Part shown: positions 7,576 to 55,693 of the stretch, one piece after another
How the letters are laid out: each line of letters begins with the position of its first letter
Numbering within the stretch: the first letter of the stretch is position 1
IMG/VR virus record: IMGVR_UViG_3300027816_000057
Direction: 5' to 3' (one strand)
DNA length: 64,000 nucleotides
Source of the DNA: a virus
The notes under the pieces: model-generated
Seen by the model: only the letters and a program-made list of their open reading frames with translations
Databases searched by the model: none
Told to the model about the DNA's origin: nothing
Program-made: the position numbers and the translations under genes

Positions 7576-8601
7576 TTATCCATTAAAATAATTAAATCTT
7601 TCAAAAGTTGGTGTTAAAATTATTGGTGTAATAGCAAAACAATCTTTTCCGTTTGCAGAATAATTCCAAGTAGGAGGAGATCCAGCCGTATTTCTATTGA
7701 CACCGCTAGCGTTATATATTACAGCTTCTCTTTCATTTTTATCTACAAAATCACGAACAACTCTAGTATAGTTTCCAGTAGTTAACGGTCTTATAGATGA
7801 AATATATCTTTTACCATTTTGTAAAGTAATAGGATTAAAGTTTATTGTAGACATGCCTTGCGAAGATGTTAAATTTTGAAGTCCACCATTAATTATTCCA
7901 GAAGCTAGTAAATTTTGACCAGTTGAACTTATTTTTTCATATAAACATAAAGCGACATCGCTATTATTATTTAATAATCTCAAAGAAGCGTGTATTCCAA
8001 TACATTGACAATTAAATTCTTGTGTCCATTCCATACCGTATTCATTTGGATTTGAAACAGAGTTAGTATTCGCTGTAGTTGATCTTGATACAGGAAAAGT
8101 AAAAGGTAAAATCGAATTATCATTAAATTTTACCGATATAACTGAGGCACCGTTTAATTTTGACCAAGTAGAACCAGCAGAAGATAGGCTGTAAGGTAAT
8201 CTTTGTAATCCATATGTTCCAATAATAGTATTTACTGTAGCTTGTGCCCCTCCGCTAGCACGAGTTATATATAAAGATGCTCCGCTATTTGGAAGCAAAG
8301 TTTGTGGAGCAATTAAAGGTATCCATTGCCAACCAGTAACAGCGGCAAATGTATTAGTCATTGATCCAGTCGATAATATTGATCCGCTATTAGGAGTATA
8401 ATTTGTTGGATTTATATTACATAATGTTGCTCTTAAAAACGGCGTACCAACAACGGAAGAAACGTTAAGTCCAACATGAGTAACAGTTCTTCCTGTTTCT
8501 TCTCTCCATACTAAACCAATATTATTCGCACCTGTTACTGCAGAAGTAGTTAATGCACCGGCACTTTCCCAATCACAATTAAAAAGATTATAAGTTCCCA
8601 T
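7576..8601 (-). CDS. Putative virion protein with two beta-sandwich-like domains
   Basis: S/T/N/G rich; two similar halves (PLIAPQTLLPN / INFNPITLQNGKRY). Confidence 0.5.
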   Translation of the reverse strand: MGTYNLFNCDWESAGALTTSAVTGANNIGLVWREETGRTVTHVGLNVSSVVGTPFLRATLCNINPTNYTPNSGSILSTGSMTNTFAAVTGWQWIPLIAPQTLLPNSGASLYITRASGGAQATVNTIIGTYGLQRLPYSLSSAGSTWSKLNGASVISVKFNDNSILPFTFPVSRSTTANTNSVSNPNEYGMEWTQEFNCQCIGIHASLRLLNNNSDVALCLYEKISSTGQNLLASGIINGGLQNLTSSQGMSTINFNPITLQNGKRYISSIRPLTTGNYTRVVRDFVDKNEREAVIYNASGVNRNTAGSPPTWNYSANGKDCFAITPIILTPTFERFNYFNG

Positions 8602-12901: not shown

Positions 12902-13419
12902 TGAATAAAAACTTTAAGTATAATAACTGTATTCAGCCAATAAGTAACTCAAGTAATATTAAAGAAAACAACAGTATTACTCTTTATGATATTTCTGGTT
13001 CTAAAAACACCAATCTTTCAAAAGACGGAGATATATTCGCTAAACGATCAGTTAAAGACGGAAACATAAAATTCTTTGCCAAAGCAAACAATAATCTTCA
13101 ATTGTTAAATCCGTTTAACGAAAGCTTTACGGTATATAATATAAATAATACTCCGGGATCAGACGTATACAATTTTGTAGAAATCACTCAAAAAAGCTTT
13201 GATCATTATATCTCATTTTTACAATCTCAAAATTCCGTTCAATATCGTTTAGCACAAAAGGAATTATCGGAAACATCTTTTGTAAAAAGAGAATATATTT
13301 CATCTACTGACGACTCTGTAAATTTCCCAGAATTTAAAATGTATAATTCAATGGACAAAGAAACAAATGAAAATAAAAATAGTAACAAACGAAAAAACAA
13401 TAGAAATAAACGAAAATGA
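12901..13419 (+). CDS. Hypothetical protein
   Basis: 172-aa ORF tiled in the operon. Confidence 0.65.
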   Translation: MNKNFKYNNCIQPISNSSNIKENNSITLYDISGSKNTNLSKDGDIFAKRSVKDGNIKFFAKANNNLQLLNPFNESFTVYNINNTPGSDVYNFVEITQKSFDHYISFLQSQNSVQYRLAQKELSETSFVKREYISSTDDSVNFPEFKMYNSMDKETNENKNSNKRKNNRNKRK

Positions 13420-13702: not shown

Positions 13703-14129
13703 ATCATTATTTGTACTTGATTTAGATATAGACGTATCTAATTATATTACAGAAATTATAATATCTAGATATTGGGAATTTAAAAATAAAATTCCGCCAG
13801 TTCCTTTTTGGCAAAAAGAATATAAAGATAATTATAAAAAACTAACTGATTCATATGTATATGAGCTTACCCAAGTCAAAAAACTTTTAAAGGTTTTTAG
13901 TCCTGCTGTGGTTTTATACTATATTAAAAATAACAATATTACTACTCTAAGATACGCTAAACTAGAAGATACTAAAGAAATTATATTTGGTTTATTCAAA
14001 AATCAATTAATTTTTATTAATCAGATTAAAGAAATTTCAAAAAACGAACTAGAAAAAGAAAACGATAAGATAGAATATATAGAGAACAAGACTCGTAAAA
14101 AAGATAATTTATTCTCGAAAGGCGTTTAA
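13623..14129 (+). CDS. Hypothetical protein (start uncertain)
   Basis: ORF coupled to recA by TAATG. Confidence 0.6.
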   Translation: MLKTVHCMKKKSEQEKTPDFSCTKIYKSLFVLDLDIDVSNYITEIIISRYWEFKNKIPPVPFWQKEYKDNYKKLTDSYVYELTQVKKLLKVFSPAVVLYYIKNNNITTLRYAKLEDTKEIIFGLFKNQLIFINQIKEISKNELEKENDKIEYIENKTRKKDNLFSKGV

Positions 14130-15139
14130 TGGCAAAAGCGGTCAATACATTACTAAAAACAATTCAAGATAAATATGATTTTGAACCAATGATAGCTACA
14201 TATTTAAAAGACGATGTAGGTGAGTTTATTCCTACAACTCTTAGTATGGATATAGCACTTAATGGTGGGATAAGAGAAGGAACAATTACAACTCTATCAT
14301 CTAAAGCCGGTGGCGGTAAAACATCTTTTTGTATACAAATTGCTGTAAATGCACAAAAGATGGGTAAAAATGTATATTTTTCTGATGTAGAAGGTCGATT
14401 GCAGCCAGAATTATTAAATTGTTTTCCTGAATTAGATCAAGACAAATTAATTGTTTTTAAATCAACTACAGATAAATTTTTAACTGCCGAAGATCATGTA
14501 AACATTATTGAAACAGTTCTTAAAGATGATCCGGGATGCGTAGTTATTTTAGATTCAATTGCGGCTTTATGCCCTGAAACAGAACACGGCGAAGATGTTA
14601 AAAGTAATAGCCGATCTTCCGTTCCGAAATTAATGTATTCTTTCTATCGAAAAATAGCACAAATTATTACCGCTAATAAATCAACTTTTATAGCAATTAC
14701 ACATCAACAAGCTAATACATCTGGATACGGTTCATCAATTGTTGAAGTCGGTGGTAACGCTAATACTTATTTCGCGTCTAATCATTTAATTGCTACCAAG
14801 GTAGAAGATTTAGTTGATGATAAAACTAAAAAATCTTATGGTAAAAATACAACGTTTAAAGTTAAAAAAGTAGCCGCAGGTGCCCCTGACGGTCTTCCTA
14901 CAATTTATGTAAGATATGGAAAAGGTTTAGATCATGTTGTTGATTTAATTGCGGTTGCTACTGAATTTGGTTTTGTTGAACGAAAAGGTGCTTGGTATAA
15001 TTTCTCTAATATTGCTGAATTAGAAAAAGAAAAATTTCAAGGTCAAGACGCATTGCATGAATTTTTAACTGTCAATAAAGATAAAGCTAGTTTAATTGAA
15101 AAAGAAATTAGATCAATAGTTTTTGGAAGTAAAAAATGA
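14129..15139 (+). CDS. recA: RecA/UvsX-like recombinase
   Basis: MDIALNGGIREG, Walker A SKAGGGKT, DVEGRL, ILDSIAAL, GGNA..YFAS, ERKGAWY, FQG. Confidence 0.92.
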   Translation: MAKAVNTLLKTIQDKYDFEPMIATYLKDDVGEFIPTTLSMDIALNGGIREGTITTLSSKAGGGKTSFCIQIAVNAQKMGKNVYFSDVEGRLQPELLNCFPELDQDKLIVFKSTTDKFLTAEDHVNIIETVLKDDPGCVVILDSIAALCPETEHGEDVKSNSRSSVPKLMYSFYRKIAQIITANKSTFIAITHQQANTSGYGSSIVEVGGNANTYFASNHLIATKVEDLVDDKTKKSYGKNTTFKVKKVAAGAPDGLPTIYVRYGKGLDHVVDLIAVATEFGFVERKGAWYNFSNIAELEKEKFQGQDALHEFLTVNKDKASLIEKEIRSIVFGSKK

Positions 15140-15393
15140 TATACGGACTAGATACAGCATTAGATGATTTTAGAAATAAAATTAAAAATTTAGTAGATAA
15201 TCATATTGATGATATACTAGACTCCGAAGAAGAAAAATTACAAGAAAAACAAGATCATACAAAAGAATTACTAAATAGATATTTAACGTTTTTAGAAAGT
15301 GCTGTATTAGACAATAAATATAAGCTTCCTAAAAAAGTAATTCAAGAATTAGAAGATGATTATAATATAATCAAAAATGAAATTAATAAATAG
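15136..15393 (+). CDS. Hypothetical helical protein
   Basis: ATGA overlap; acidic, coiled-coil-like. Confidence 0.6.
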   Translation: MIYGLDTALDDFRNKIKNLVDNHIDDILDSEEEKLQEKQDHTKELLNRYLTFLESAVLDNKYKLPKKVIQELEDDYNIIKNEINK

Positions 15394-15772
15394 CAACAAT
15401 AAAACCGTTAAAATAAGTGTCAAAGAATCAGACTATCCTCTTAAAACTGAGACTTCAGCTAAATCAAAAATACAATTTAACTGTGGTAAATTAATTAAAG
15501 ATCATTTTCCGTCTGATCCTATATTAGAAGATGTACCTGTAGATGGTGCGTCTTTTTATTTTGATTTCTGGCTTCCGAGAAGAAAAATAGTATTTGAAAT
15601 ACAAGGTCGCCAGCACGATCAATACGTTAAATTTTATCATAAAGATAAAAATTCATATTTTAAAAGCATTGACCGAGATTTAAAAAAAGAAGAATTTTGT
15701 CGCATTAACGATATTAAATTATTCTATGCTAGAACTATAGAAGAATTGGAGAAACTGCTTGCAACGGTATGA
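15377..15772 (+). CDS. Vsr/DUF559-like PD-(D/E)XK endonuclease
   Basis: FYFDFWLP..KIVFEIQGRQHD...RDLKKEEFC..NDIKL. Confidence 0.8.
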   Translation: MKLINSNNKTVKISVKESDYPLKTETSAKSKIQFNCGKLIKDHFPSDPILEDVPVDGASFYFDFWLPRRKIVFEIQGRQHDQYVKFYHKDKNSYFKSIDRDLKKEEFCRINDIKLFYARTIEELEKLLATV

Positions 15773-16241
15773 CAAAAAAGACATAGCTACTGAAATAGAA
15801 ACCACGAGGGCTTCTTTTAATTTTCCTAACTTATCTTCTCCTAATGATATTAATAAAATAATTGGTATAATTACTAAAGAAGATTTAACAAAAGTGCCGG
15901 TTGAAGAGCTGCTTGATTATAGTACTAAAATAGTTGTTTATAGTCTATATTTGACGCATGAGACAAATAGAATAAAAGCAAAAGCCGACTGGATTGAATC
16001 TCAAATTCGACATATTGTAGGAAAAGAATTAGCGAATTCACGAGGATTTACTTTTGAAGAAAAAAATATAGACATACGAGCAAATCACGATCATGCTAGT
16101 GAATTCGAGCAAGAAAAAGTTTTAGAACTTACAAAATATGAGGTTTTTAAAAACATAGCCTATAAAATGCAGAATCTAGCCGAACAACTAAATATGGTTA
16201 TAAGAGAAAGAAACAACTTTAATAGAAAGAATAATATATGA
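15759..16241 (+). CDS. Helical protein, possible UvsY-like recombination mediator
   Basis: All-helical, 160 aa, between recA and dnaB; function inferred from context only. Confidence 0.35.
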   Translation: MQRYDKKDIATEIETTRASFNFPNLSSPNDINKIIGIITKEDLTKVPVEELLDYSTKIVVYSLYLTHETNRIKAKADWIESQIRHIVGKELANSRGFTFEEKNIDIRANHDHASEFEQEKVLELTKYEVFKNIAYKMQNLAEQLNMVIRERNNFNRKNNI

Positions 16242-16681
16242 ATTTTAAAAATTTAAAAACAGCTATTTTAAATAAGTCTTGGGATGACGTTATCATATTT
16301 TATGAAAATATAACAGGGGAAAGTCTAGAGAATAATAATAGCACAAATGCTAAAAAAACAATTGCTAAAAAGGGACGACCTAAAAAAACAAGTAAAAAAG
16401 TAAAAACTAAAGCGGAGTCTAGAACTAATGATGACGATATGGTTTTTTACGGCGGGGAAGACGCAGAAGAAAACGAAGAATCAAAGATAGCTAAAAAAAT
16501 AGCTAAGGGTCTAAAAAAAAGAAAAGTAAAACAATCTCGTGATTTATATCAACCAAATATGGTAAATTGCACTAACTGTAATAGAGCGTTTGACAAAAAT
16601 AAAGATAACAGCTTTACAGTAATTGGTGAATCTTCAGGTATAAATAAAAATCTATGTAATAAATGCGTTCTTTCAAGATAA
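16238..16681 (+). CDS. Basic protein with AT-hook-like motif and C-terminal Zn finger
   Basis: KKGRPKK; CTNC...CNKC. Confidence 0.55.
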   Translation: MNFKNLKTAILNKSWDDVIIFYENITGESLENNNSTNAKKTIAKKGRPKKTSKKVKTKAESRTNDDDMVFYGGEDAEENEESKIAKKIAKGLKKRKVKQSRDLYQPNMVNCTNCNRAFDKNKDNSFTVIGESSGINKNLCNKCVLSR

Positions 16682-16682
16682 T

Positions 16683-18146
16683 ATGAAAAACAATATATCA
16701 AACCTAGAATTAGAAAAATCTATAATTGGAACTATAATAAAAAATGGTAGCGATAGTTATTACGAAACAGCAGATTTAATTGATTCTAATTGTTTTTATT
16801 ATCCAGAAACTCAATTAATATATAATGCGGTTACAAATTTAATAAAAAATGGTGTAGAGAAATTTGATAATTCTACCGTTATACATCAAATAAAAGAAAT
16901 AGATAAAAACGCAGTAGAAAAATATGAAATAAATGATGTAATATCCGATTCAATTAATCTGTCTGTTTTACCTGAAAATATATCAAATATATCTAAATCT
17001 TTATTACGTCTAACTCTTTTGAGAGGATTAGATCAGGGAATAGTAGCCGCTAGAGAAAAATTAAAAAACGTTGACGCTTCTGCTACTTTATTAGATATAA
17101 CCAGCACAGTAGAGAAGGTTTTATTTGATTTTACGTCTAAAATTATTAATGGTCAAAATCAAATAGTAGATGTTTCCAAGAATATTCATTCATTTGTAGA
17201 ATATCTAGCTACAAATCCACAGTCTATTAGAGGTATTCCAACCGGCTTTCCTTTATTTGACAAAGCTATAGGAGGCGGTTTACGTCGCGGTGGTTTTCAT
17301 GTTATCGGCGGGCGTGCTAAATCTTTAAAATCTACTACAGGTTTTAATATGGCTAATAACGTAGCACAAAATGGAATACCTGTACTGTTCCTAGATACTG
17401 AAATGAATGAGTCTACCTGTATGTCAAAATTACTAGCTATGAATTCAAACATCTCAATACGAGATATTGAAAGTGGTAATTTTGCTAAAAGTGAATCTAC
17501 TTTAAAACAAGTAGCTGAAGCAGAAAGAAAGATAGACGGATATAATTTTTCATATGTTCCAGTTGCTGGATTGAGTCACCATAAAATAATTTCTATTGCT
17601 AAAAAATGGTTACTTAAAAATGTAGGATTAGACGAAAATGGTAGATTTAAAGATTGTCTTGTTATTCTAGATTATCTTAAAACAATGGATTTAAAAGAAA
17701 AAGGGAACGATCAAGAATATCAGTATTTAGGACAAATAGCTACCGATCTACATAATTTTGCAACACAATACGATGTTCCAGTTCTTACCTTTGTTCAATT
17801 AAATAGAGACGGTATAGATCGAGAAGATTCCGGCGTTGTATCAGGATCAGATAGAATTTTATGGCTTTGTACGTCATTGTCTATAATTAAAAAGAAGAGT
17901 GACGAAGATAGAATGATTGATCCAGACACTAACGGCGATAGAAAATTAATAGTTGTTGCCGCTAGATACGGGTCTGGATTAAGAGAAAAAGAATATATAA
18001 ATATCTTTTCTGAACCAGAAAAAGGTATAGTAAAAGAAGGAAAATCGAATTTAGATAATATTGTTTCTAATGGCGGATCATCGAATAATGGCTATAAGCG
18101 TAAAAATTCAAACATAAAAGACGATGATAGTTTCTCATCTTTATAA
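16683..18146 (+). CDS. dnaB: Replicative DnaB-family helicase
   Basis: LELEKSIIG N-domain, GIPTGFPLFDKAIGGGL, LFLDTEM, VILDYL, VQLNR, ARYG. Confidence 0.92.
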   Translation: MKNNISNLELEKSIIGTIIKNGSDSYYETADLIDSNCFYYPETQLIYNAVTNLIKNGVEKFDNSTVIHQIKEIDKNAVEKYEINDVISDSINLSVLPENISNISKSLLRLTLLRGLDQGIVAAREKLKNVDASATLLDITSTVEKVLFDFTSKIINGQNQIVDVSKNIHSFVEYLATNPQSIRGIPTGFPLFDKAIGGGLRRGGFHVIGGRAKSLKSTTGFNMANNVAQNGIPVLFLDTEMNESTCMSKLLAMNSNISIRDIESGNFAKSESTLKQVAEAERKIDGYNFSYVPVAGLSHHKIISIAKKWLLKNVGLDENGRFKDCLVILDYLKTMDLKEKGNDQEYQYLGQIATDLHNFATQYDVPVLTFVQLNRDGIDREDSGVVSGSDRILWLCTSLSIIKKKSDEDRMIDPDTNGDRKLIVVAARYGSGLREKEYINIFSEPEKGIVKEGKSNLDNIVSNGGSSNNGYKRKNSNIKDDDSFSSL

Positions 18147-19077
18147 GCAGTCAGTTTATCGCTTATTTGAGGACTTAGGCTTTCCTTTGTTTAGTGAAAG
18201 TTTAAGATGCCAGTGCCCTATTCACGGCGGCGACAACGCTAGTGCCTTTAGTTTTAATTTTGAGAACGGATGGCGTTGTTGGACTCATAATTGCCACGAA
18301 GATTATCCAAAGGGTTTAATCGGCCTTATTATGGCTGTTGATAAATGCGAGCTAGATGAAGCCAAACAAAAATTAGCAAAATATTTAGAAAATCAATCAG
18401 TAGAAGATATAGGGAAGATTGAATTCAAAAGAACGGTTAAGACAAATAAAATTTTTGATTCTTCTGTTTTGCCTAAAGATAACTACTCAAAATATTTTGA
18501 AAAAAGAGGATTTAGTAAAAACACTATGGAAAAATTCCAGTGTTTTGAATGCCTTAATAAAAACAAAACTTTATATAATCGTGCAGTAGTTCCAATTTTT
18601 GATGATGAAAATAATTTAGTCGCATTTACCGGACGATCTATTGAAACTAGTTTTATTAAATGGTTACATCAACCAAAAAGTTTTTACAAGTCTAATATAC
18701 TGTACAATTTAAATAATTCTAAAAGATATCTTCTTCGGTTAAAAACTGTAATTATCGTAGAAGGACCGATGGACGTATGGCGATTACACGAAGCAGGTAT
18801 CTATAATGTAGTTGCTCTATTAGGAACATCTATAAGTTACGAACAAATAAAGCTTATAAAAAAATATAATGTCAAAAAAGTAGTCATATTATTTGATCCA
18901 GATCACGCTGGTTTAAAAAGTATGTTAAAAGAAAACGGAATTGTTGATCAATTGTCTAAAGATTTTGAAATTTTTAGTTTACGACATCTTTTAGAAAAAG
19001 ATATAGGTGAAACTGATATTGATTATATAAACTATATAATTAAGCCAGAATTAAGAAAAATTATTTATGGAAAATAA
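18124..19077 (+). CDS. dnaG: DnaG-type primase (CHC2 Zn finger plus TOPRIM)
   Basis: CPIHGGDN...WRCWTHNC, AFTGRSI, VEGPMDV, FDPDHAG. Confidence 0.9.
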   Translation: MIVSHLYKQSVYRLFEDLGFPLFSESLRCQCPIHGGDNASAFSFNFENGWRCWTHNCHEDYPKGLIGLIMAVDKCELDEAKQKLAKYLENQSVEDIGKIEFKRTVKTNKIFDSSVLPKDNYSKYFEKRGFSKNTMEKFQCFECLNKNKTLYNRAVVPIFDDENNLVAFTGRSIETSFIKWLHQPKSFYKSNILYNLNNSKRYLLRLKTVIIVEGPMDVWRLHEAGIYNVVALLGTSISYEQIKLIKKYNVKKVVILFDPDHAGLKSMLKENGIVDQLSKDFEIFSLRHLLEKDIGETDIDYINYIIKPELRKIIYGK

Positions 19078-19783
19078 GATTATAATAATAAGCGGTAAAA
19101 AACAATCAGGGAAAAGCTCAGCAAGAGCCTTTTTAACATCAGAAATTTCAAAAGGATATGGTATAGACGGTACTTATACTGAATGGTACAATCCCGTAGT
19201 TAATCATTATTCTTTTGCTGACGAACTTAAAAGATTAGCAATCGAATTATTTAATTTATCGGAAAAAAATGTATACGGAACAAATGAAGAAAAAGACTCT
19301 CCTACTCATATTAAGTGGTCTGATCTTCCAATGCAAGGATATCAATTACACGATTTGCGTCAAGAACTGTGGACGATTAACGGGGTATATAAAAACTTTC
19401 AAAGACAGTATGTAACTGGTCGTGAATTTTTAAAAATATTTGGAACCTATATATGTAGGCGGATATATCCAGATTGTTGGGTTTTAGCGACAATCAATAA
19501 AATCAGAAAAACTAAACAAGATTATGCTATAATAGATGACGCAAGATTTCCAAATGAAATCAAATTACTTTATAACGAATTTAAAGATAATTGTAAAATT
19601 ATAAGATTAGAAAGAAATATTTTTAACGATTCGGATATAACAGAGACTGCACTGGATGATTTTGATTTTAAATCACTTAATTCTGTTATAATTGATAATA
19701 GTAATATGTCGATAGAAGAAAAAAATCAAACTATATTAAATAAACTAAAGGAAAACAATTTCTATGCTAGAAATACTAGATAA
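19067..19783 (+). CDS. Deoxynucleoside monophosphate kinase
   Basis: ISGKKQSGKS, SFADELKR, REFLKIFGT, IIDDARFPNE, IDN. Confidence 0.85.
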   Translation: MENKIIIISGKKQSGKSSARAFLTSEISKGYGIDGTYTEWYNPVVNHYSFADELKRLAIELFNLSEKNVYGTNEEKDSPTHIKWSDLPMQGYQLHDLRQELWTINGVYKNFQRQYVTGREFLKIFGTYICRRIYPDCWVLATINKIRKTKQDYAIIDDARFPNEIKLLYNEFKDNCKIIRLERNIFNDSDITETALDDFDFKSLNSVIIDNSNMSIEEKNQTILNKLKENNFYARNTR

Positions 19784-20825
19784 AACGTATTCTTTTGATG
19801 ATGTATTGTTGATACCCAATCATTCTAAAATTAGATCAAGACTTGATTCTACTATAGATATTTCAACAAAAATAGGAAATACTAAATTAGATATACCTAT
19901 TATTTCAGCTAACATGGATACCGTAACTGAATTAGATATGGCTAAATCTATAAGATCATGCGGTGGGCTAGGTATTTTTCATAGATTTTATAAATCAAAA
20001 GAGAAATATCACGCTCAAATAAAAGATTATCAAATTAGCACAAAAGAAGTTCCATATGTAAGCATAGGATTAAAAACTTCTTTTGAAGAAATAAAAGAAT
20101 TAATGGATTTATTTCATACCGACAAATTAAATCTTTGTTTAGATATAGCAAATGCGGATAATGAGAATGTATTAAATTACATATCCAATCTTCTTATTAA
20201 TTTAGATAATAAAGTCAACTTAATTGTTGGTAATATATGCACTAAACAGGCAGCAGTAAGATTAATAAATATAGGCGTTAAGACATTCAAAGTAGGAATA
20301 GGTCCGGGTTCTGCCTGTACTACACGAATACAAACCGGTCATGGAATTCCTCAATTATCTGCTATTCATTATGTAAAAGAAGCTATAGAAGATTTACGAA
20401 ATCCTAAAGATTATCATATCATAGCTGACGGCGGAATTAAAAATTCCGGAGATATTGTAAAAGCTTTAGCGGCTGGTGCTAGTAGCGTTATGATTGGTAA
20501 AGTATTAGCATCTTGTAATGAATCGCCCGCTCCTTTGATTTATCACGACGGACATTCATATAAAGAATACAGAGGTCAGTCCTCTTATAAGTTTCAAAAA
20601 GACAACAATATACATCGTCCAGATATTACACCTGAAGGCGAATGCTTTTTTATTGATTCTACCGGTCCAGTAAAAGACACTATAGATTTACTTGTCGGCG
20701 GAATTCGTTCCGGTATGTCTTACGCTGGTGCTTTAAATTTACGCGAGCTTTATCTTAACTCTAGATTTGTAGAAATATCTAACGCGGGCTTAAAAGAGTC
20801 TTATCCTCATGGTAAAAATAAATAA
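19764..20825 (+). CDS. IMP dehydrogenase / GMP reductase (CBS-less)
   Basis: [30 protein letters not shown] (catalytic Cys), IADGGIK, YRGQSS, PEGE. Confidence 0.92.
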
Positions 20826-21294
20826 AATAGTTAATATAGGTATAGTTGGACCTAAAGGATATGCTTTAGGGGGTTATGATTTTAACGATAGAAGAAGAAA
20901 AATTCTTAATGAATATCTATCGCATATCTTTCAGATAGAATCTATCAATAAAACCGTTGTTGGATATTGCGGCTTAAATAGTGGTAGCGATTATGAATTT
21001 GCAAAAACATGCAATGAAAACAGAATTCCTTACTATATTTATCTTTCTAATGAAAACGAACAAGACTCATGGATATCAAATATAAAAGAAAGAAATTTGA
21101 TTTTAAATTCCGCAAACGAGGTTCAGTATTTATATAAAGGCGAGTATTCTCCTAAAAAAAATATGAATAGAACAAAAATGATTATAGAAAATTCAGATAT
21201 AGTAATTTATGTTAAAAATAAACTTAAAAATAAATGTAGTATTCTAAATTATATTCTTAATACAAAAAAAACTATTTACTACATCAATATATGA
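20809..21294 (+). CDS. YspA-like SLOG-superfamily protein
   Basis: IGIVGPK..LGGYD, GLNSGSDYEFA, PYYIYL, MIENSDIVI. Confidence 0.6.
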   Translation: MVKINKIVNIGIVGPKGYALGGYDFNDRRRKILNEYLSHIFQIESINKTVVGYCGLNSGSDYEFAKTCNENRIPYYIYLSNENEQDSWISNIKERNLILNSANEVQYLYKGEYSPKKNMNRTKMIIENSDIVIYVKNKLKNKCSILNYILNTKKTIYYINI

Positions 21295-21695
21295 AATTAA
21301 TATGTTATTTTGACGGCTCTTATCGTTGTAATAAAAACAAAATGTATTGGGCTTTTGTAATTAATGACCAAAATGGAAACATTATACAGCAAAAAAATTC
21401 CAGCTTAACTCAAAAGGTATGTACGTCTAATTTAGCGGAATTTATAGCTTTAAAAGAATTACTACTATTCTTAAACGAATACAGTCAATCAAATACTATA
21501 TCTAATGTAGAAATATATGGTGATTGTAAAAATATAATAAATGGCATCAATGGTGAATCAAAAATTAGACCCAAGCATTTAAAAGAAATAAAAGATATTT
21601 GTCTAGAATATATAGATCAAATTAAATGCGAAGATATAGAAATATCTTGGATATCTAGAAAAAACAATACAACTTGTGATCGGTTAATGAGATGA
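21291..21695 (+). CDS. Ribonuclease HI
   Basis: YFDGS, TSNLAEFIAL, IYGD, WISRKNN..CDRL. Confidence 0.85.
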   Translation: MKLICYFDGSYRCNKNKMYWAFVINDQNGNIIQQKNSSLTQKVCTSNLAEFIALKELLLFLNEYSQSNTISNVEIYGDCKNIINGINGESKIRPKHLKEIKDICLEYIDQIKCEDIEISWISRKNNTTCDRLMR

Positions 21696-21895
21696 AAAAA
21701 GATAAAAAACCAACAATTGAATTTGTAGCTAACTATATTTTAGATATTCTTAAATATAGACAGGTTCCGACCGATGTAAAAACACCTATGGGTTTTTTAC
21801 CAGATAACCAGATTAAATTTTTAGAAAAATTTGGTTATAAAGTAAAATTATTAGATCAAAATGAAAAAGGCACGGTATATAATATATGCAAATAG
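21692..21895 (+). CDS. Hypothetical protein
   Basis: 67-aa ORF with ATGA overlap. Confidence 0.55.
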   Translation: MKKDKKPTIEFVANYILDILKYRQVPTDVKTPMGFLPDNQIKFLEKFGYKVKLLDQNEKGTVYNICK

Positions 21896-22875
21896 AATCC
21901 GCTTCAAAAAGTTCTTTAGACACCTATCTTGATTGCCCGTTTAAATGGTATTTAACTTACTACTGCAAACAACGAGAACCTTCGGGTAAAGCTGCGGTAA
22001 TCGGTACAATAGTACATAAAGTATTGGAAGTTTTAGCTAAGGCTAAAAAAACCAAACATCATTTACTAAACGATAAATATACTGATTATAATTATTTATC
22101 TAAAATTTGTTATAATCGAGAAGTAAGAAATAATCCTCATTTATCTTTTTCTGACTCAGATTTAAAAACAGTAATTAAACTATGTGATAGTATAATGAAG
22201 ACCATGTATAATCCATTAAAAATGGAAACACTGGCAACTGAAATGGGTTTTGAAATTGAGATACAGAAAAAGGGATTCTCTTATAAATTTGTAGATTATA
22301 GGTCTAATGAGACTAAAACCGGATTTTTTAAACTTACAGGTTTTATAGATTTAATATGTACCTCTAGCGATTCTGTTATAGAAATAGTTGATTATAAAAC
22401 CGGTCAAAGAAAAGATTGGGTCACGGGAAAAATTAAAGATGTACATAATATGCACGATGATCTACAGCTTCAAATCTATAATCTTGCTGCACACTATATA
22501 TATCCAGATAAAAAACGTTTGTTAACACTATATTTTCTAAAAGACGGTGGACCTTATACTATATCACTGGATGAATCTAATGAAGAAGAAATCCTTGACA
22601 AAATTAGAAAAATATTTCGTGTTATTTCTATAGATAGCGATCCTAAAAGATTAAAAGATGACGACGATAAGAAAAAATTTCATTACAAATGTAGAAAATT
22701 TTGTCACTTTGGAAAAACAGAAAATGAAAACGGAGTCAGTCTTTGTGATGAATATTATAATATGTATAAAAAATTAGGATTAAACGAAGCAGCCTTACAG
22801 ATTCAATCATTAACTATTAATGGTAAAAAAAGCAATCGAGTGTTTAAAAACAACAAAAAGGGAATTATCAAATAA
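21886..22875 (+). CDS. PD-(D/E)XK exonuclease, AddB/Cas4-like with predicted Fe-S cluster
   Basis: YLDCPFKW, GTIVHKVLE, GFIDL, IVDYKTG, QLQIY, CRKFC...LC. Confidence 0.85.
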   Translation: MQIESASKSSLDTYLDCPFKWYLTYYCKQREPSGKAAVIGTIVHKVLEVLAKAKKTKHHLLNDKYTDYNYLSKICYNREVRNNPHLSFSDSDLKTVIKLCDSIMKTMYNPLKMETLATEMGFEIEIQKKGFSYKFVDYRSNETKTGFFKLTGFIDLICTSSDSVIEIVDYKTGQRKDWVTGKIKDVHNMHDDLQLQIYNLAAHYIYPDKKRLLTLYFLKDGGPYTISLDESNEEEILDKIRKIFRVISIDSDPKRLKDDDDKKKFHYKCRKFCHFGKTENENGVSLCDEYYNMYKKLGLNEAALQIQSLTINGKKSNRVFKNNKKGIIK

Positions 22876-24530
22876 TGATCCATATTACTTATAGTCATTA
22901 TTCTTTACAAGAAGCTTTTAGTCATATTGATGAAATTGTAGATCGTGCTTGTAAATTTAAGCTTCCGTATGTTATTTTAGCTGATTATAATTCTGTAGCT
23001 GGTTGTCCGGAATTTATACAATTGGTGCTTAAAAATAATAAAAAGAATAAAGACAATATAATAAAACCGATAATTGGATTTACCTCGTTTTATAACAATA
23101 AAAAAATTCATATACTTTCTCTAAAAAGAGATGGATGGTTTTCTTTAGTAAAGATTATATCTAGACTTAATTCTAAAGATCATTTTTTAAAATATAAAAA
23201 CAGTCATATACAAGACGAAGATTTATCAATTATAAAATCTGATAATAATTTATATCTTCTGTATAGCGACGACAATATATCAGAATCATATTATGTTGAT
23301 AAAGACGACCTGCCTTTTCAACAAATATTAATATGCAATAAACTAAAGACGGACATTGACAATAAAGATTCCGTATTGAAAAATTATCCAGAATATCAAA
23401 TATTTTTTAATAATAATGACTTTAGCTTAAAAGAATACTCATCTGAGCAATGGGTAGATTTTGATAAATTTGAAATATATGATATTTCTAGTCCGTCCAG
23501 ACTTCCAGTATTTAAGAATGAAAAAAACGAAGAGGTTGATCCTGATAAATATCTGACTGATTTATGTCGTATAGGTTGGTCTGAAAGAAAGATGAATGAT
23601 CGTTTTATTAAATATCCAGAATTAAAGACGATATATGTTGAAAGAGTTAAAGAAGAACTAGACACATTAAAAAAATATAATATCTCTAACTATATGTTGC
23701 TGGTTCGAGATTTTACAAATTTTACGAAAAGCAATAACGCATGTGTTGGACTAAGAGGATCTGCGGTAGGAAGTTTAGTATTCTATTTGACTGGCGTAAC
23801 AAATATCGACCCTGTATGGCCGGATACAAATATTCCTTACGATTCTGATAAATCTCTATTATTTTCTCGATTTATTAACAAAGGTCGATTAGCTGAAGGC
23901 AAAAACGCTTTACCGGACGTAGATATAGACATTCCTATCTCTTTTAGAGATAAATTAAAAGATTATATATATAAAAAATACGGTCATGATAAAGCAGCCC
24001 ATATTGCTGCGTTTGGTAAAATTAAAGCAAAAATGGCTATTAAAGATGTGTTTAGAATTCGAGGAAAATCATTTGATGTAGCGAATGAAATTACATCTAA
24101 AATGATCGACGAATCTAAAGTCCAAGATGAACTAGAAGATTTAAAGCAGGTAGACTCTAAATATAATATTATTAACTATAATATAGAATACATTGAAGAT
24201 TTATCAAATTATTATAAAGAATATAAAAATGAATTTGATATAGCTATTCGGTTAAATAACACCAACCGTAGTTTTAGTCAACACGCAGCCGGACTTGTTT
24301 TAGCCGACATTCCTTTAAAAGATTTTTTGCCAATCTATTACGATTCCGAAAAGGATTTAGACGTTGTTGGACTAAAAATGCAGGACGTTGAATATTGCGG
24401 TGCTGTAAAATATGATCTATTGTCATTAGCTGCGTATTCTAAAATTGATGAGATAATAAAAATGGTCAATAAGAATACCAATGAACCAGAGATGACAACT
24501 TACGAACTAGAGGAAAATTATGATATATAA
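22875..24530 (+). CDS. dnaE: DNA polymerase III alpha, N-terminal half (degenerate PHP, palm, thumb)
   Basis: SHYSL, YVERVKEEL, YMLLVRDF, GLRGSAVGSLV, LLFSRFI, LPDVDID, QHAAG, VKYDLLSL. Confidence 0.92.
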   Translation: MIHITYSHYSLQEAFSHIDEIVDRACKFKLPYVILADYNSVAGCPEFIQLVLKNNKKNKDNIIKPIIGFTSFYNNKKIHILSLKRDGWFSLVKIISRLNSKDHFLKYKNSHIQDEDLSIIKSDNNLYLLYSDDNISESYYVDKDDLPFQQILICNKLKTDIDNKDSVLKNYPEYQIFFNNNDFSLKEYSSEQWVDFDKFEIYDISSPSRLPVFKNEKNEEVDPDKYLTDLCRIGWSERKMNDRFIKYPELKTIYVERVKEELDTLKKYNISNYMLLVRDFTNFTKSNNACVGLRGSAVGSLVFYLTGVTNIDPVWPDTNIPYDSDKSLLFSRFINKGRLAEGKNALPDVDIDIPISFRDKLKDYIYKKYGHDKAAHIAAFGKIKAKMAIKDVFRIRGKSFDVANEITSKMIDESKVQDELEDLKQVDSKYNIINYNIEYIEDLSNYYKEYKNEFDIAIRLNNTNRSFSQHAAGLVLADIPLKDFLPIYYDSEKDLDVVGLKMQDVEYCGAVKYDLLSLAAYSKIDEIIKMVNKNTNEPEMTTYELEENYDI

Positions 24531-24828
24531 AGTAGAACAATTTTTATCTGACGAAGGTAAAGAAATAAAAGTGCTAACGAATACAGAAAATGAAAAAGAC
24601 GTTAAATATACAACTCCTGTTCCCGTATTGCATCCTGAAATGGGAATTATGGAGGCGTCCGCTGTAATTAAGGTCAGCTCTTTAAAAGAAGCCTTTGATA
24701 GAATAGACTCATTACGAGAAGAATATATTAAAATGATGGAAATGCAAGCTGATAAAATGAAAAATCAGCTAGTAATAGCTAATGACGTTCCAAATATTTC
24801 AAATAAGGCTGGTAAATTAATAATATGA
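24520..24828 (+). CDS. Hypothetical protein (between dnaE halves)
   Basis: 102-aa ORF with GAGG RBS. Confidence 0.65.
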   Translation: MIYKVEQFLSDEGKEIKVLTNTENEKDVKYTTPVPVLHPEMGIMEASAVIKVSSLKEAFDRIDSLREEYIKMMEMQADKMKNQLVIANDVPNISNKAGKLII

Positions 24829-25322
24829 GTAAATCAACAATATGTTTTATAGGAAAACGACCTAAAGATTTAGTTATTGATTATGGGGATAATGCACTAG
24901 GATTAATAGAAGAATATATTGAAGATTTTGTTAAATCTAATCCAAATGTACAGCTTGCTACATCTTTATCTTATGGAATAGAATATATAGCTGGTAAAAT
25001 TTTTCAAAAGCATCAACTTCCTTATCATGTATTTTTAACTTTTAACAATCAAGAAAAAATATGGCCTAAAAAAACACAGGAAGAATACAAGCAATTATTA
25101 TTAAATGCAAAATCAGTTAATCAAGTAGAAACTGGCGAATGGAGTTTAGATCGATTAAAACTAAAAGATAAAACACTTATTGAACAAAGTAACACAGTTT
25201 ACTATTTATTAGATAAAAAACCTTATGGGAATTTTACTAATAAGGAATTAATTAAAATAAATCTAAATAAAGAGGAAAAATCGGAATCTGACGAAAATTT
25301 AGAAGAAGGGTTTTCATTTTGA
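24825..25322 (+). CDS. YspA-like SLOG-superfamily protein
   Basis: ICFIGKRPKDL, TSLSYGIE, NQEKIWP..TQEEYKQLL..AK.V. Confidence 0.7.
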   Translation: MSKSTICFIGKRPKDLVIDYGDNALGLIEEYIEDFVKSNPNVQLATSLSYGIEYIAGKIFQKHQLPYHVFLTFNNQEKIWPKKTQEEYKQLLLNAKSVNQVETGEWSLDRLKLKDKTLIEQSNTVYYLLDKKPYGNFTNKELIKINLNKEEKSESDENLEEGFSF

Positions 25323-25960
25323 ACAAACAAGTATTTATATATTTTGATACAGAAACAACAGGCGTCGATCCTAGAGCTGGGCACGAGATTATACAAATAG
25401 CTGCTAAAGCTATTAACCCCGCTACTTTAGAATTTTATGAAAACGGCGAATTTGAAATAGTGTTAAAACCTCAAAGACCAGAAAAAGCTAGTCCAGAAGC
25501 GGTAGAGATACTTGGACCAGAACTTTGGAGCAGATGTCAAAAAGAAGGTTTTGAGCCTAAAGTTGGTTTACAAAAATTTATGGATTGGATTAATTCATAT
25601 AACAATACTCCCGGAAAAAAGTATTGGGGTCAGCCCATTATGGTTGCTCACAATGTAGCGTATGATTTAATGATGATGCACCACGCATTATTAGATGAAC
25701 ACAAACTATATAAAAACCGAGACAGTCTACCTTTCTGTTCTAGATCATTAGATACTTGGGCTTGCTTTTTTACTTTATACGAATCTGATCCAGAAGTTTC
25801 TAAATATAGTCTAGACTCATTAATGGGTATATTAGGTATGAAGAGAACAGCTTCTACTCACGATGCACTAGAAGATGTAAGATTGGGTGCTAACGCTTTT
25901 ATAAGATTTATGAAACTTTATCGACAATTCAAAAAGAAAATAAAAATTAATAACGAATAA
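25319..25960 (+). CDS. DEDDh 3'-5' exonuclease (DnaQ/epsilon-like)
   Basis: YFDTETTG, EIIQIAA, VAHNVAYD, SLDT, HDALED. Confidence 0.88.
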   Translation: MNKQVFIYFDTETTGVDPRAGHEIIQIAAKAINPATLEFYENGEFEIVLKPQRPEKASPEAVEILGPELWSRCQKEGFEPKVGLQKFMDWINSYNNTPGKKYWGQPIMVAHNVAYDLMMMHHALLDEHKLYKNRDSLPFCSRSLDTWACFFTLYESDPEVSKYSLDSLMGILGMKRTASTHDALEDVRLGANAFIRFMKLYRQFKKKIKINNE

Positions 25961-25984
25961 AATAATCGTGCATGTTGGATATGA

Positions 25985-26518
25985 TTGAAAAGTTATATCC
26001 TGCTTTTGAACTACAGAAAAGATAATCGTACTAAAAATCAATTTGCCGACGATATAATAGAATGTACGAAAATTGAACGCGAGTTGATGAATATATATGT
26101 AGACGACCTAAACAAAAGAAAAGGTGCGTATATCTATACTTTTGTCGATAACGGTATAGATAATAGTGGAAAATTAATTGAAAACGATAAAGAAATAACA
26201 ACAAGTGCCGACTTTAAATTAAAAAAAATTAAAGGTAGAGATAGATTAATCGAAATCAAGTTTTGCCGAAAAGATTTAAACGTTTTTCATTTAAAAACTT
26301 CGCAATTAAAATCATATATAAGGCAAGATTGTTGCGTTGTAATGTTTATGGGTATTGATACCGAAAATATACGATATACTATATTAAAACCTTCAGATAT
26401 GGAGGCGGTATTATTAGGATATAAAGATGTATTTTTTTGGGGCAAAAAACAAAAGAGATTGCCCATAAAAGACTTTAACTGGTATTATGTTAACATCAAT
26501 AGAAAATCTACCAATTAA
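25985..26518 (+). CDS. Putative PD-(D/E)XK-fold endonuclease
   Basis: ERE...ADFKL...LIEIK pattern; basic. Confidence 0.5.
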   Translation: MKSYILLLNYRKDNRTKNQFADDIIECTKIERELMNIYVDDLNKRKGAYIYTFVDNGIDNSGKLIENDKEITTSADFKLKKIKGRDRLIEIKFCRKDLNVFHLKTSQLKSYIRQDCCVVMFMGIDTENIRYTILKPSDMEAVLLGYKDVFFWGKKQKRLPIKDFNWYYVNINRKSTN

Positions 26519-28031
26519 CGATTCAAAAACATGGGAATTGATAGCAAGCGGAAAGACTAATGGAGTTTTTCAATGTGAAAGTTTGCTAGTTCAAAATTGG
26601 TTATCTAAAATTCAACCCAAAAATATTTGGGAGTTATCAATTGTTATCGCTGGTGTACGACCAGCTAGTTTACAATCTGGTGCTATGGATAGGTACTTAA
26701 AGTACAAAAATGATCCATCATCGATTAAAAAAACCGGAAACGAAACAATTGATTCAATTTTAAAAAGCACTAATTTTAATATCTTTTTTCAAGAACAATT
26801 AATCTTATTAGCACAAAGATTAGCGTGGAAGCATTTACCTGAATTAGAAAGACTGGCTAAGTCTGACGATTTAAGAAAAGCGGTAGGTAAAAAAGATAGT
26901 GCTAAAATTTTAGCAATTGGTAAAGAATTTACCGATGGATGTATAGCGAATGGAGTTAATCAAGAATTAGCAGATAAATTATTCAATGTACTAAAAAATG
27001 CCGGTAGATACGCATTTAATTTGTCTCACTCTATAAGCTATGCTTTTGTTGCTTATTACACCGCTTATTTAAAAACTCACTATCCAAAACAGTTTTTTGC
27101 TACCTATCTTAGTTATAGCAAAGAAAAAATAAAACCATTTTATGAATTAAATAAAATGGCACAAGACGCTAAACGTTTTGGTATTAAAATACTTCCGCCT
27201 AATATCAATAAGAAAAATCTTGAATTTAGTATAGAAAACGATAATATCAGATACGGTCTGTCTCATATAAAATTTATAGATAATAAATTCAGAGATAATA
27301 TCAAAAATTTAAAAGAGATTAAGTCTATTGCGGATTTTCTAAATTTTATCATCAAAGGATATTTTGTCGATAATGAATACATCAAACCTAACTGTAGATG
27401 TGTTCAATCTTTAATAATTACTGGATGTTTTAGTGATATTGGATGTTCACGCAACGATCTTCTTAATATCGCTAATCTTATCGACAGTTTAACTAAAAAA
27501 GAGCAAGAGGGCGTAATTACAATATTAGATGAATGTAAAGATATTAATAGTGTTCCCTCTATTATAAGTAAAGTAGCACAGCATGTTTCTGTTAAAAAAC
27601 GTAGACCTATTATAGATAGCGAGTCTAAATTTTTAGAAAAATCTTTAAATAAAGATGATACTGAGTATTTTATAGAAAAATCAGAAAAAGAATACTGTGG
27701 CACTATTATTACTGGAAATTTACTTGGAGACAAAGAGAAGTTTTCTACAAGAAAATGCCTAGAATTAAATGATTACTCGGGAGATGATAATCAGTTCTTA
27801 ATTTGCGTAATAGATAAAGTGGAAATCAAGGTTATTAAAAGCGGTGCTAATAAAGGCAAAAAAATGTGTACTTTATCAGTACATGATTCTACCGGAACTT
27901 TAGATAATATATGTATATTTTCAGATATATTTGCTAATAGCAGTGATATAATAAGAGAAGACTCGATTATCCAGCTTACTCTAAATAATAAAAACGGAAG
28001 ATGGATTACCCGAGGTATATGCACAATATGA
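26487..28031 (+). CDS. dnaE: DNA polymerase III alpha, C-terminal half (fingers, HhH, OB)
   Basis: PINDSKTWELI..GKTNGVFQCES, RPASLQSG, FFQEQL, DDLRKAVGKK, YAFNLSHS..YA, AYLKTHYP, PPNINK, IRYGLSHIK, OB-fold end. Confidence 0.92.
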   Translation: MLTSIENLPINDSKTWELIASGKTNGVFQCESLLVQNWLSKIQPKNIWELSIVIAGVRPASLQSGAMDRYLKYKNDPSSIKKTGNETIDSILKSTNFNIFFQEQLILLAQRLAWKHLPELERLAKSDDLRKAVGKKDSAKILAIGKEFTDGCIANGVNQELADKLFNVLKNAGRYAFNLSHSISYAFVAYYTAYLKTHYPKQFFATYLSYSKEKIKPFYELNKMAQDAKRFGIKILPPNINKKNLEFSIENDNIRYGLSHIKFIDNKFRDNIKNLKEIKSIADFLNFIIKGYFVDNEYIKPNCRCVQSLIITGCFSDIGCSRNDLLNIANLIDSLTKKEQEGVITILDECKDINSVPSIISKVAQHVSVKKRRPIIDSESKFLEKSLNKDDTEYFIEKSEKEYCGTIITGNLLGDKEKFSTRKCLELNDYSGDDNQFLICVIDKVEIKVIKSGANKGKKMCTLSVHDSTGTLDNICIFSDIFANSSDIIREDSIIQLTLNNKNGRWITRGICTI

Positions 28032-28498
28032 ATTTACAACGACAAATACTTAAAGACTTTAATTTACTTCCAGAATATCAATATATTGATGACGATAACA
28101 TATCATATAAAATATTAGAACACATATATAGATTTAGTATAAAAGAAAATATTATTAATTTTTACTATAAAGACAAAAAGTTTATTATCAATTGCGATAA
28201 ATACACTATTAAATCCATCATTGAGATGCAGATAAGAAATATAAATAAATTATATAATATACCATTTGAATTTATCGTATTTAAAAATGACGACGTTATT
28301 TGTTCAAATGTTTTTGTAAACATTAAAGAATGTAATAAATCTAAGTCTATTTATAAGATGTATCATGATATGTTAAAATTTGGGATCACTGACGAATTAA
28401 TTAAAACAGTAGAAAAAGAAGGTATGTTAGACAGCTTTAATTTAATTATTAAAGCATATATAGGATATGAATTATGCGTACCGAAAAAGAAAATTTAA
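28028..28498 (+). CDS. Hypothetical protein
   Basis: ATGA overlap with dnaE-C; very AT-rich. Confidence 0.55.
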   Translation: MNLQRQILKDFNLLPEYQYIDDDNISYKILEHIYRFSIKENIINFYYKDKKFIINCDKYTIKSIIEMQIRNINKLYNIPFEFIVFKNDDVICSNVFVNIKECNKSKSIYKMYHDMLKFGITDELIKTVEKEGMLDSFNLIIKAYIGYELCVPKKKI

Positions 28499-29103
28499 TA
28501 AAAGAATACGATGATATGGCGGTAAAATTAGGACATAAATTTGCAAGAAATTTTGGACGAAGACACACTAAAGATTTTATTCAAGAAGCAAGAGTCTTAT
28601 TGATAAATGCGGTAGAAAAATATTTACTATCAAATAAAAGTAATAAAGAAAAAAGTATAAAAGGATATATCAATCACATAATAAGAAACGGATTAAGTAA
28701 AGTCGCGTTAAAATTAAACTCTGATGTATCGGTATCGGTATCTACAAGAGAATTAATTAATAGAATTAAAAATAGTTTAAAAAATGATGAAGATTTTAAT
28801 ACTATAAGTAAAAAATACAATATATCTAAAAAAAGAATATCCAAATTATTAGACTATACATTTAATTTTTATTCTTTTAATAATCTTCCAAAAGAACAAA
28901 AAGAAAAACAATTAGATTTTAAGAATAACCATAGACAGTTTGAAATATTAGACGGACTAATGGGAATCGATCGTGTTATTTTTGAAAAGATATGCGAAAA
29001 CAAAACTATAACAGATATCGTGCAAGAAACTGGAATCAATCATAGTTTAGTAAAAGAACGCTTAATAAATATTAACAATAGAATACAGCAAGAAATTTTA
29101 TGA
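28474..29103 (+). CDS. RNA polymerase sigma-70-family factor
   Basis: ENLIKEY..MAVKL, DFIQEA.V.LINAVEKY, YINHIIRN (region 2); C-terminal HTH TITDIVQETGIN. Confidence 0.75.
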   Translation: MRTEKENLIKEYDDMAVKLGHKFARNFGRRHTKDFIQEARVLLINAVEKYLLSNKSNKEKSIKGYINHIIRNGLSKVALKLNSDVSVSVSTRELINRIKNSLKNDEDFNTISKKYNISKKRISKLLDYTFNFYSFNNLPKEQKEKQLDFKNNHRQFEILDGLMGIDRVIFEKICENKTITDIVQETGINHSLVKERLININNRIQQEIL

Positions 29104-49988: not shown

Positions 49989-50594
49989 TTAAATATATTC
50001 TAATTCAAACCATAAACCAAAATTAGTTTTTGATCCTACGCTGGATGGACTAGCAGAAAGAGCTACATAATAATCGTGTCTAGTGGAGGCACCGGGTATT
50101 TGACCGTTGGTGCCGGGACTATTAGATAAAGTTAAAACTGATCCAGAGCCAGATAATTGAGTCCAAGATGTACTTCCAGATCCTGTTGGTGTAACAGCAA
50201 GCCAAGGATGTATTAATTCAGCCGCTTGAAAAGTTAAACCAGAAGGCGGATTGTTTTTATTAGAGCGATCGTATCCGTATAATTTAGCGTTTTGTGTTTG
50301 TATAGATGTATCTGAGTTGATTCGTATATTTAAACTAGCTAAATAATTTGGAATTCCTCTTAAATGTAATCCTGAAACTGAATTAACATTTCCACTATTA
50401 GCGGAAATATACTTTACGTTATCTCCAATTGGACCCTGAGTAGTTCCGTTTGAATTGGTGACGTAAGTAGTATCCTGATAAGAACCTATTTGTACTGCAT
50501 TTCCAAATGAAGAACCGTAAAACCCTAAACCTGATCCGTTTAGAGTAGTAAAATTAGCATTTTGCCCAACCCAAAATTCTATAGAAGTCGCCAT
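49989..50594 (-). CDS. Putative virion structural protein
   Basis: S/G/N-rich beta protein ending LEYI; has its own GTGTATAA motif. Confidence 0.6.
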   Translation of the reverse strand: MATSIEFWVGQNANFTTLNGSGLGFYGSSFGNAVQIGSYQDTTYVTNSNGTTQGPIGDNVKYISANSGNVNSVSGLHLRGIPNYLASLNIRINSDTSIQTQNAKLYGYDRSNKNNPPSGLTFQAAELIHPWLAVTPTGSGSTSWTQLSGSGSVLTLSNSPGTNGQIPGASTRHDYYVALSASPSSVGSKTNFGLWFELEYI

Positions 50595-50600
50595 AATTAA

Positions 50601-50608
50601 TTATACAC
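50601..50608 (-). promoter_or_regulatory. GTGTATAA motif 6 nt upstream of the ATG at 50594
   Basis: Minus strand reads GTGTATAA-TTAATT-ATG. Confidence 0.6.
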
Positions 50609-50609
50609 T

Positions 50610-51065: not shown

Positions 51066-51075
51066 ATATTACTCC

Positions 51076-55671: not shown

Positions 55672-55685
55672 AAATCCTCATATGA

Positions 55686-55693
55686 TTATACCC
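55686..55693 (-). promoter_or_regulatory. GGGTATAA variant motif with GAGGA RBS downstream
   Basis: Minus strand reads GGGTATAATCATATGAGGATTTATG. Confidence 0.35.

Follow-up and report, generated by a model that had tools for sequence, protein, structure and literature searches.

To our knowledge, the alpha subunit of DNA polymerase III (Pol III alpha, DnaE) is the textbook single-chain bacterial replicase, and its sole well-described natural split is that of cyanobacteria, which is mended by protein splicing. In the single-chain enzymes of Escherichia coli (2HNH/5FKU) and Thermus aquaticus (2HPI/3E0D) the domains are PHP, palm, thumb, fingers and HhH. Here we describe a locus from an uncultured phage of ~163 kb in which the same domains, in the same order, are distributed over two separate open reading frames (ORFs), dnaE-N and dnaE-C, that are 1956 nucleotides (nt) apart and enclose four other genes (Table 1). 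The locus lies in a stretch of 64,000 nt, IMG/VR record IMGVR_UViG_3300027816_000057, which was analysed over its whole length and is called the window below. Compared with single-chain DnaE, the phage enzyme consists of two polypeptides, has extended tails and belongs to a clade whose PHP domain has lost its HxH motif.

Several replicative polymerases that come in pieces are known. Among family B polymerases, gp43A/B of the T4-like phage Aeh1 and PolB of Methanothermobacter are intein-free enzymes of two subunits, the phage case with genes between the halves; this family is not homologous to DnaE, and its break position is another one than that of the phage DnaE halves. The split-intein site of cyanobacterial DnaE is located in the FNKSH motif of the fingers. 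In cyanobacteria with split-intein DnaE (Ssp/Npu), as in the fractured DnaE loci, dnaE likewise comes in two pieces, which in the fractured loci are adjacent and have an endonuclease gene between them; however, these pieces carry the intein fragments IntN and IntC, are spliced into one chain and are cut at other sites, whereas the phage halves are devoid of intein sequence. Fractured genes for DnaE, IMPDH, gp41 and Nrd, whose halves carry split inteins and flank Vsr-like endonucleases, were described by Dassa et al. 2009 (PMC2677866). For the group 2.2 jumbo phages, Iyer et al. 2021 (PMC7824862) predicted a split Pol III alpha that is free of inteins and consists of two stand-alone proteins. 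This jumbo-phage enzyme is a minimal catalytic core that has neither PHP nor the other domains, cut within the catalytic module between the nucleoside triphosphate-binding and the Mg/DNA-binding subdomains, and its halves are at distant loci, alongside a family B replicase (PMC7824862). The window polymerase, by comparison, is full-size, with PHP and HhH, is cut between palm and fingers, and has its halves 2 kb apart in one operon. A survey of bacterial Pol III alpha (PMC3919608) and one of phage polymerases (PMC11348598) do not mention a split form with a palm/fingers break, and we found no published description of an intein-free break at this position in a literature whose coverage was incomplete, chiefly for subscription journals. 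As far as we found, then, the locus holds a widespread split polymerase of a known general kind, that of the split replicative polymerases, apparently undescribed at this break.

An earlier, sequence-only reading of the window had proposed two colinear halves of Pol III alpha, without obvious loss and cut at the palm/fingers boundary. The two ORFs, which start and stop independently here as in the relatives, and the motifs VKYDLLSL, PDVDID and LPINDSKTWELI..GVFQCES were all found as described. In Pfam searches, dnaE-N matched PHP (PF02811, 1.5e-10) and PF07733 (5.7e-58, profile positions 2-259 of 260), and dnaE-C the fingers family PF17657 (9.6e-28, profile positions 21-166 of 166) and HHH_6 (PF14579, 4.2e-12). 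D348 and D350, in PDVDID, and D514, in VKYDLLSL, align with D401, D403 and D555 of E. coli alpha; all three catalytic aspartates are thus on dnaE-N, while dnaE-C has what remains of the fingers, together with HhH and the C-terminal region. Colinearity was borne out by two comparisons. On phrog_405, a profile of full-length phage DnaE, dnaE-N stops at position 622 and dnaE-C covers 623-1063, and in the alignment with E. coli alpha residue 535 of dnaE-N corresponds to 576 and residue 5 of dnaE-C to 586, with 16 and 4 residues left over. The cut can be placed somewhat more exactly, one helix inside the fingers: the interrupted linker is the counterpart of residues 577-585 of E. coli alpha and comes after the first helix of a fingers domain that reportedly begins at residue 561 (Lamers et al. 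2006). On its other side, the conserved IxxIPxxD block of dnaE-C is preceded by four residues only. In alignments dnaE-C spans residues 586-912 of E. coli alpha and 614-936 of Mycobacterium tuberculosis alpha. No match to the C-terminal OB fold (PF01336) was found in dnaE-C at E <= 0.01; its phrog_405 match extends to residue 509, and the homologue in the related locus L009 has a weak PF01336 match.

The N-half is predicted to fold confidently by itself: its AlphaFold2 (AF2) model, computed alone, has a predicted local distance difference test score (pLDDT) of 91.4 and a predicted TM-score (pTM) of 0.87. In Foldseek it retrieved the alpha subunits of T. aquaticus, E. coli and M. tuberculosis at E 1e-30 with TMq ~0.7, and it corresponds to these structures across its whole length, PHP included. 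The last helix of the model comprises residues 519-532 and is followed by a low-confidence tail, the final 5 residues having pLDDT <50. Comparison of the window with the related locus L001 indicates strong purifying selection on both halves, with ratios of nonsynonymous to synonymous substitution (dN/dS) of 0.07-0.11 and proportions of nonsynonymous (pN) and synonymous (pS) differences of 0.16-0.19 and ~0.7, respectively; the ratios are rough because dS is saturated.

Nothing at the junction looks like an element able to join the halves, in agreement with the sequence-only reading, which had seen no intein at either end. Beyond the aligned part of dnaE-N there are 16 residues, NEPEMTTYELEENYDI, six of them acidic and none basic or Cys, and ahead of the aligned part of dnaE-C there are four (MLTS); together they are therefore insufficient for a HINT fold. 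Indeed, the C-terminus of dnaE-N has no room for a split-intein IntN (about 90-120 amino acids (aa), starting with Cys or Ser), nor does the N-terminus of dnaE-C have an IntC (about 35-50 aa, ending in HN followed by C, S or T). Neither half matched an intein or HINT family of Pfam at E <= 0.01, with a library that does detect inteins in this group (Intein_splicing and LAGLIDADG_3 in a related N-half, P0053, and PT-HINT in a neighbour gene of a relative). A scan with Rfam models, as the earlier reading had advised for introns, gave no match at E <= 1 across positions 22000-29000. Likewise, there were no border repeats, the repeat scan giving only short AT-rich chance matches elsewhere; no segment in the window is shared by the tail of the N-half and the head of the C-half; and none of the genes in the gap is a recombinase according to Pfam. 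The six genes from dnaE-N to dnaE-C are joined by overlaps of 11, 4, 4 and 32 nt and one spacer of 24 nt. A promoter scan of the region showed no enrichment over shuffled sequences, and there was no convincing terminator on the same strand (5 terminator-like sites versus 2.4 expected, 4 of them on the opposite strand).

The break is a shared feature of a large group of phages. We concatenated computationally the N and C halves of each related locus, marked the junction and aligned them with full-length DnaEs: the identical linker, which is short in the single-chain enzymes, is broken in seven distinct loci with 32-77% identity. This conservation, which the sequence-only reading had advised to test, extends to 27 clusters of related N-halves, down to about 32% identity, whose full-length members end at most about 25 residues past the first fingers helix. 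PDxDxD and K(Y/F)D are kept in every full-length N-half of these clusters (two rows are partial proteins), the three catalytic aspartates are invariant across 23 N-halves, and the PHP HxH motif of bacterial DnaE is lost in almost all of them. There was no full-length protein near dnaE-N: the best long match that included fingers reached 149 bits, versus 300-750 for N-only relatives. In a census with the C-half as phmmer query against 1.84 billion representatives, we classified the best 150 clusters at 50% identity. C-only proteins beginning at the breakpoint of the window made up 131 of these 150, the other classes being fused proteins (7), proteins crossing the site (4), C-halves with an extra N-terminal domain (3) and a few partial ones. 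No cultured phage in INPHARED exceeded about 33% identity, and the matches inspected there (MT837784.1, Streptomyces phage Lannister) ran on in one frame without interruption, as fused genes would.

In a FastTree phylogeny, 144 rows formed a clade with a support of 100, on a long branch apart from bacterial DnaE, and the window fell within a subclade of 22 rows, all of them split. Fused forms are nested at several places in the clade, requiring at least six changes of state. Judging from these sequences, the split is old, family-wide and dominant in a large clade of uncultured phages. Nor is it an artefact of assembly, because the identical C-half protein recurs in different samples, on at least 24 contigs (162,729-162,761 bp) that were assembled independently.

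The genomic setting of the halves is similarly stable. An exact 39-mer of the window had no match in IMG/VR. The closest IMG/VR phage, at 68-77% identity, has the identical set of six genes, and more distant contigs (32-44% identity) keep both halves and the gap between them within the same operon of replication genes, in the order RecA, DnaB, primase, deoxynucleoside monophosphate (dNMP) kinase, IMPDH-family gene, RNase H, PDDEXK_1, dnaE-N and, after the gap, dnaE-C; the gene order of the upstream module is identical in relatives. The gap itself varies, with 3 genes in L009, 4 in L008, 5 each in L003 and L005, and 13 over 5.5 kb in L004. In L008 the C-half and a neighbour gene are interrupted by runs of N (13019-13120 and 14400-14500), which correspond to a scaffold gap in ENA and not to a true truncation.

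In the window, the gap of ~2 kb is fully coding and comprises four co-oriented genes, overlapping or closely spaced, with dN/dS of 0.10-0.20 against L001. Their earlier description as a hypothetical, a SLOG protein, a DEDDh exonuclease and a nuclease-like protein proved right, the last having a PD-(D/E)XK fold by model and motif. The 102-aa protein has no Pfam or PHROG match, and Atlas returned phage hypotheticals only, but it is kept in L001 (65%) and L003 (33%) and has a dN/dS of 0.10. The SLOG protein matched PF06908 (1.5e-09; 38.5 bits versus a cutoff of 27.7), and its gene is also found in the gaps of L001, L003, L005 and L006. The DEDDh protein matched PF00929 (RNase_T, 1.1e-16) and phrog_192, annotated as 'DNA polymerase exonuclease subunit' (3.4e-22). 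Among solved structures it is nearest to the exonuclease domain of PolC, 2P1J; in the alignment of the two, FDTETTG carries the DxE of Exo I, HNVAYD the D of Exo II and HDALED the HxxxxD of Exo III. The exonuclease gene follows dnaE-N in 8 of the 8 lineages examined, and its product is likely the proofreading subunit, because the canonical HxH metal motif of PHP is lost in the clade.

The 177-aa protein has invariant D76 and K92, with E at position 90 (D in 2 of the 12 aligned sequences), and an AF2 model of pLDDT 83.8. All its top Foldseek matches have the PD-(D/E)XK fold (Hjc, SPARDA nuclease, RecU/PrfA, PvuII); none of them reaches E <= 0.001, and the protein is therefore placed in a fold class and not in a family. 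It had no Pfam match to Vsr or other homing-endonuclease families. Of the seven other lineages, five have this gene in their gap (L001, L003, L004, L005 and L008), with 39-82% identity. A PDDEXK_1 gene lies upstream of dnaE-N, syntenic in all relatives, and the replication module therefore contains two different PD-(D/E)XK nucleases.

Table 1. Features of the window discussed in the text, with their coordinates.
Feature	Position	Strand	Remarks
Presumed virion protein genes	8601-11567 and 49989-63767	-	
Upstream replication module	14129..22875	+	RecA, DnaB, DnaG-type primase, dNMP kinase, IMPDH/GMP-reductase family protein, RNase H, PDDEXK_1 nuclease (Pfam)
IMPDH/GMP-reductase-family gene	19764-20825		without intein; PF00478, 300 bits
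PDDEXK_1 (Cas4/RecB-like) nuclease gene	21886-22875		shares base 22875 with dnaE-N start
dnaE-N	22875..24530	+	551 aa; PHP, palm, thumb and first fingers helix; D348, D350, D514; acidic 16-aa tail
102-aa protein (P0003)	24520..24828	+	overlaps dnaE-N stop by 11 nt; function not assigned
YpsA-type SLOG protein	24825..25322	+	165 aa; 4-nt ATGA overlap with preceding gene
DEDDh 3'-5' exonuclease	25319..25960	+	213 aa; TTG start; 4-nt overlap
PD-(D/E)XK-fold nuclease	25985..26518	+	177 aa; overlaps dnaE-C start by 32 nt
dnaE-C	26487..28031	+	514 aa; remaining fingers, HhH and C-terminal region

We consider it probable, at roughly three chances in four, that this locus encodes a DnaE-type replicase made as two polypeptides and working as a non-covalent complex. 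The N-subunit would contribute PHP, thumb, the palm with its three catalytic aspartates and the first fingers helix, and the C-subunit the rest of the fingers along with the DNA-binding HhH module and the C-terminal region. Since palm and fingers are divided between the subunits, the active site would be composite. The subunits would dock via an extensive palm/fingers interface, helix 519-532 of the N-half completing the fingers of the C-half; the acidic, low-confidence tail of the N-half may fold upon binding. The DEDDh exonuclease, encoded between the halves, is probably co-translated with both. In E. coli, epsilon binds the PHP domain of alpha; the DEDDh protein would proofread for the phage enzyme in the way that epsilon serves E. 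coli alpha, whose PHP is inactive. It is from conservation, co-location and purifying selection that we infer an assembly into an active heterodimer, and the association of the halves, the way they dock, their polymerase activity and the proofreading role of the exonuclease are all predictions from homology, conservation and gene order.

Some points weigh against this reading or limit it. The ratios used to gauge selection suffer from the saturation mentioned above. There is no second dnaE-like segment within the window, yet these 64 kb are part of a genome of ~163 kb, so that another polymerase could be encoded elsewhere. As for the history of the break, the sequences would fit either one old split followed by re-fusions or repeated splits; the tree, obtained with FastTree only and unrooted in effect, speaks to the age and dominance of the split and not to its number of origins.

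The partial coverage of the genome would also suit the idea that the halves are no longer a polymerase, having separate roles or being in decay, while another phage polymerase or that of the host replicates the genome; the degenerate PHP HxH and the missing Pfam match to an OB fold in the C-half point in the same direction. Yet the three catalytic aspartates do not vary among the N-halves, the motifs of the fingers are kept as well, and purifying selection acts strongly on either half; moreover, the two are always found together within a single replication operon, and more than 130 clusters retain the same architecture, all of which makes such a loss of function very unlikely. Covalent joining of the halves, be it through a splicing element of protein or RNA that escaped recognition, through ribosomal bypass or through excision at the DNA level of the 2-kb insert, has general precedents in split-intein DnaE and in phage polymerase genes split by introns. 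We found no positive evidence for it here, and it is hard to reconcile with the lack of HINT and Rfam intron matches, of space for intein halves, of a recombinase and of border repeats, and with a gap consisting of four conserved genes under selection and varying from 3 to 13 genes in relatives; we regard it as extremely improbable.

How the split arose is a separate matter, and one scenario is compatible with a two-chain replicase: a gene fractured by a split intein and a free-standing homing endonuclease, whose intein halves were later lost and whose endonuclease was domesticated as the PD-(D/E)XK nuclease of the gap. The position of this nuclease, directly upstream of dnaE-C in four of the five other lineages that have it in the gap, recalls the endonucleases between split-intein gene halves (Dassa et al. 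2009, PMC2677866), and inteins are active in the lineage, as seen in the IMPDH-family gene of L005, in the N-half P0053 and, by inference, in insertions of C-half matches of 640-990 aa. Against this, the window keeps no intein remnant, its short N-tail and C-head having no sequence in common, and the conservation of the nuclease equals that of the polymerase (82% identity, dN/dS 0.10), unlike what a selfish endonuclease would show; moreover, it is missing from L009 and lacks a match to Vsr or any other homing-endonuclease family. We thus hold this origin to be conceivable, although rather doubtful.

Inteins and their relatives were found at several places in this group of phages. The N-half P0053 (L007:9001-12000) contains a full intein, with Intein_splicing and LAGLIDADG_3 at about residues 393-756, within PF07733; no C-half was found within 9 kb downstream of it, a stretch with a uracil-DNA glycosylase, a DEDDh exonuclease and a methyltransferase. 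The IMPDH/GMP-reductase-family genes of L005 (4005-5390) and L006 (2558-3943) have a PT-HINT intein, and L008:1361-2191 is a Hint-containing gene of 276 aa. Besides, C-half homologues matched in two or three stretches (such as P0203, P0213 and P0188) have insertions of ~125-415 aa at query positions ~100 and ~172-180, the latter directly ahead of the GRYAFNLSH motif; these insertions look like inteins.

The halves themselves show variants in other branches of the clade. Four proteins (P0209, P0236, P0247 and P0253) start ~70 aa before PDxDxD and continue through the fingers, which amounts to a second breakpoint in the clade; their PHP and N-terminal palm must therefore be separately encoded. 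Many distant C-halves (for instance P0244, P0241, P0284 and L009:7167-7290) have a head of 25-45 aa with a conserved xFxCGCxF, their IPLDD block is often IPLDC, and the N-half of L009 terminates in ...GFCS. This Cys-rich head, absent from the subclade of the window, may be a clasp at the junction, perhaps with zinc. In addition, the C-only halves P0197, P0293 and P0282 carry an N-terminal Macro (6e-18, 5.5e-05) or NADAR (1.6e-36) domain; in place of such a fusion, the gap of the window contains a gene for a YpsA SLOG protein. Macro and NADAR are both families that remove ADP-ribose, and the fusions suggest that replication is coupled to the reversal of DNA ADP-ribosylation.

The remainder of the window is also phage-like, with ~30% GC and tightly packed, co-oriented genes. 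Its large presumed virion proteins (1531, 883, 668 and 632 aa) had no PHROG match at 1e-05, and the structural module of this ~163-kb phage is unlike those of cultured phages.

Whether the split is of use to the phage can be considered along these lines. It might be adaptive, providing a modular replicase regulated by assembly, with N-subunit, epsilon-like exonuclease and C-subunit, and perhaps the PD-(D/E)XK nuclease or SLOG; the C-subunit could then be re-equipped with Macro or NADAR, or with the Cys-rich CGC...C head, coupling replication to counter-defence against DNA ADP-ribosylation. We consider this extension of the two-chain replicase unlikely. In practical terms, annotation pipelines that expect one DnaE of ~1100 aa will label such halves 'partial' or 'pseudogene'. 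If the two-chain replicase is real, it would offer a natural system for the study of palm-fingers communication and proofreader recruitment, as well as parts for the engineering of split polymerases, and it would mean that the active site of a C-family polymerase can assemble from two chains.

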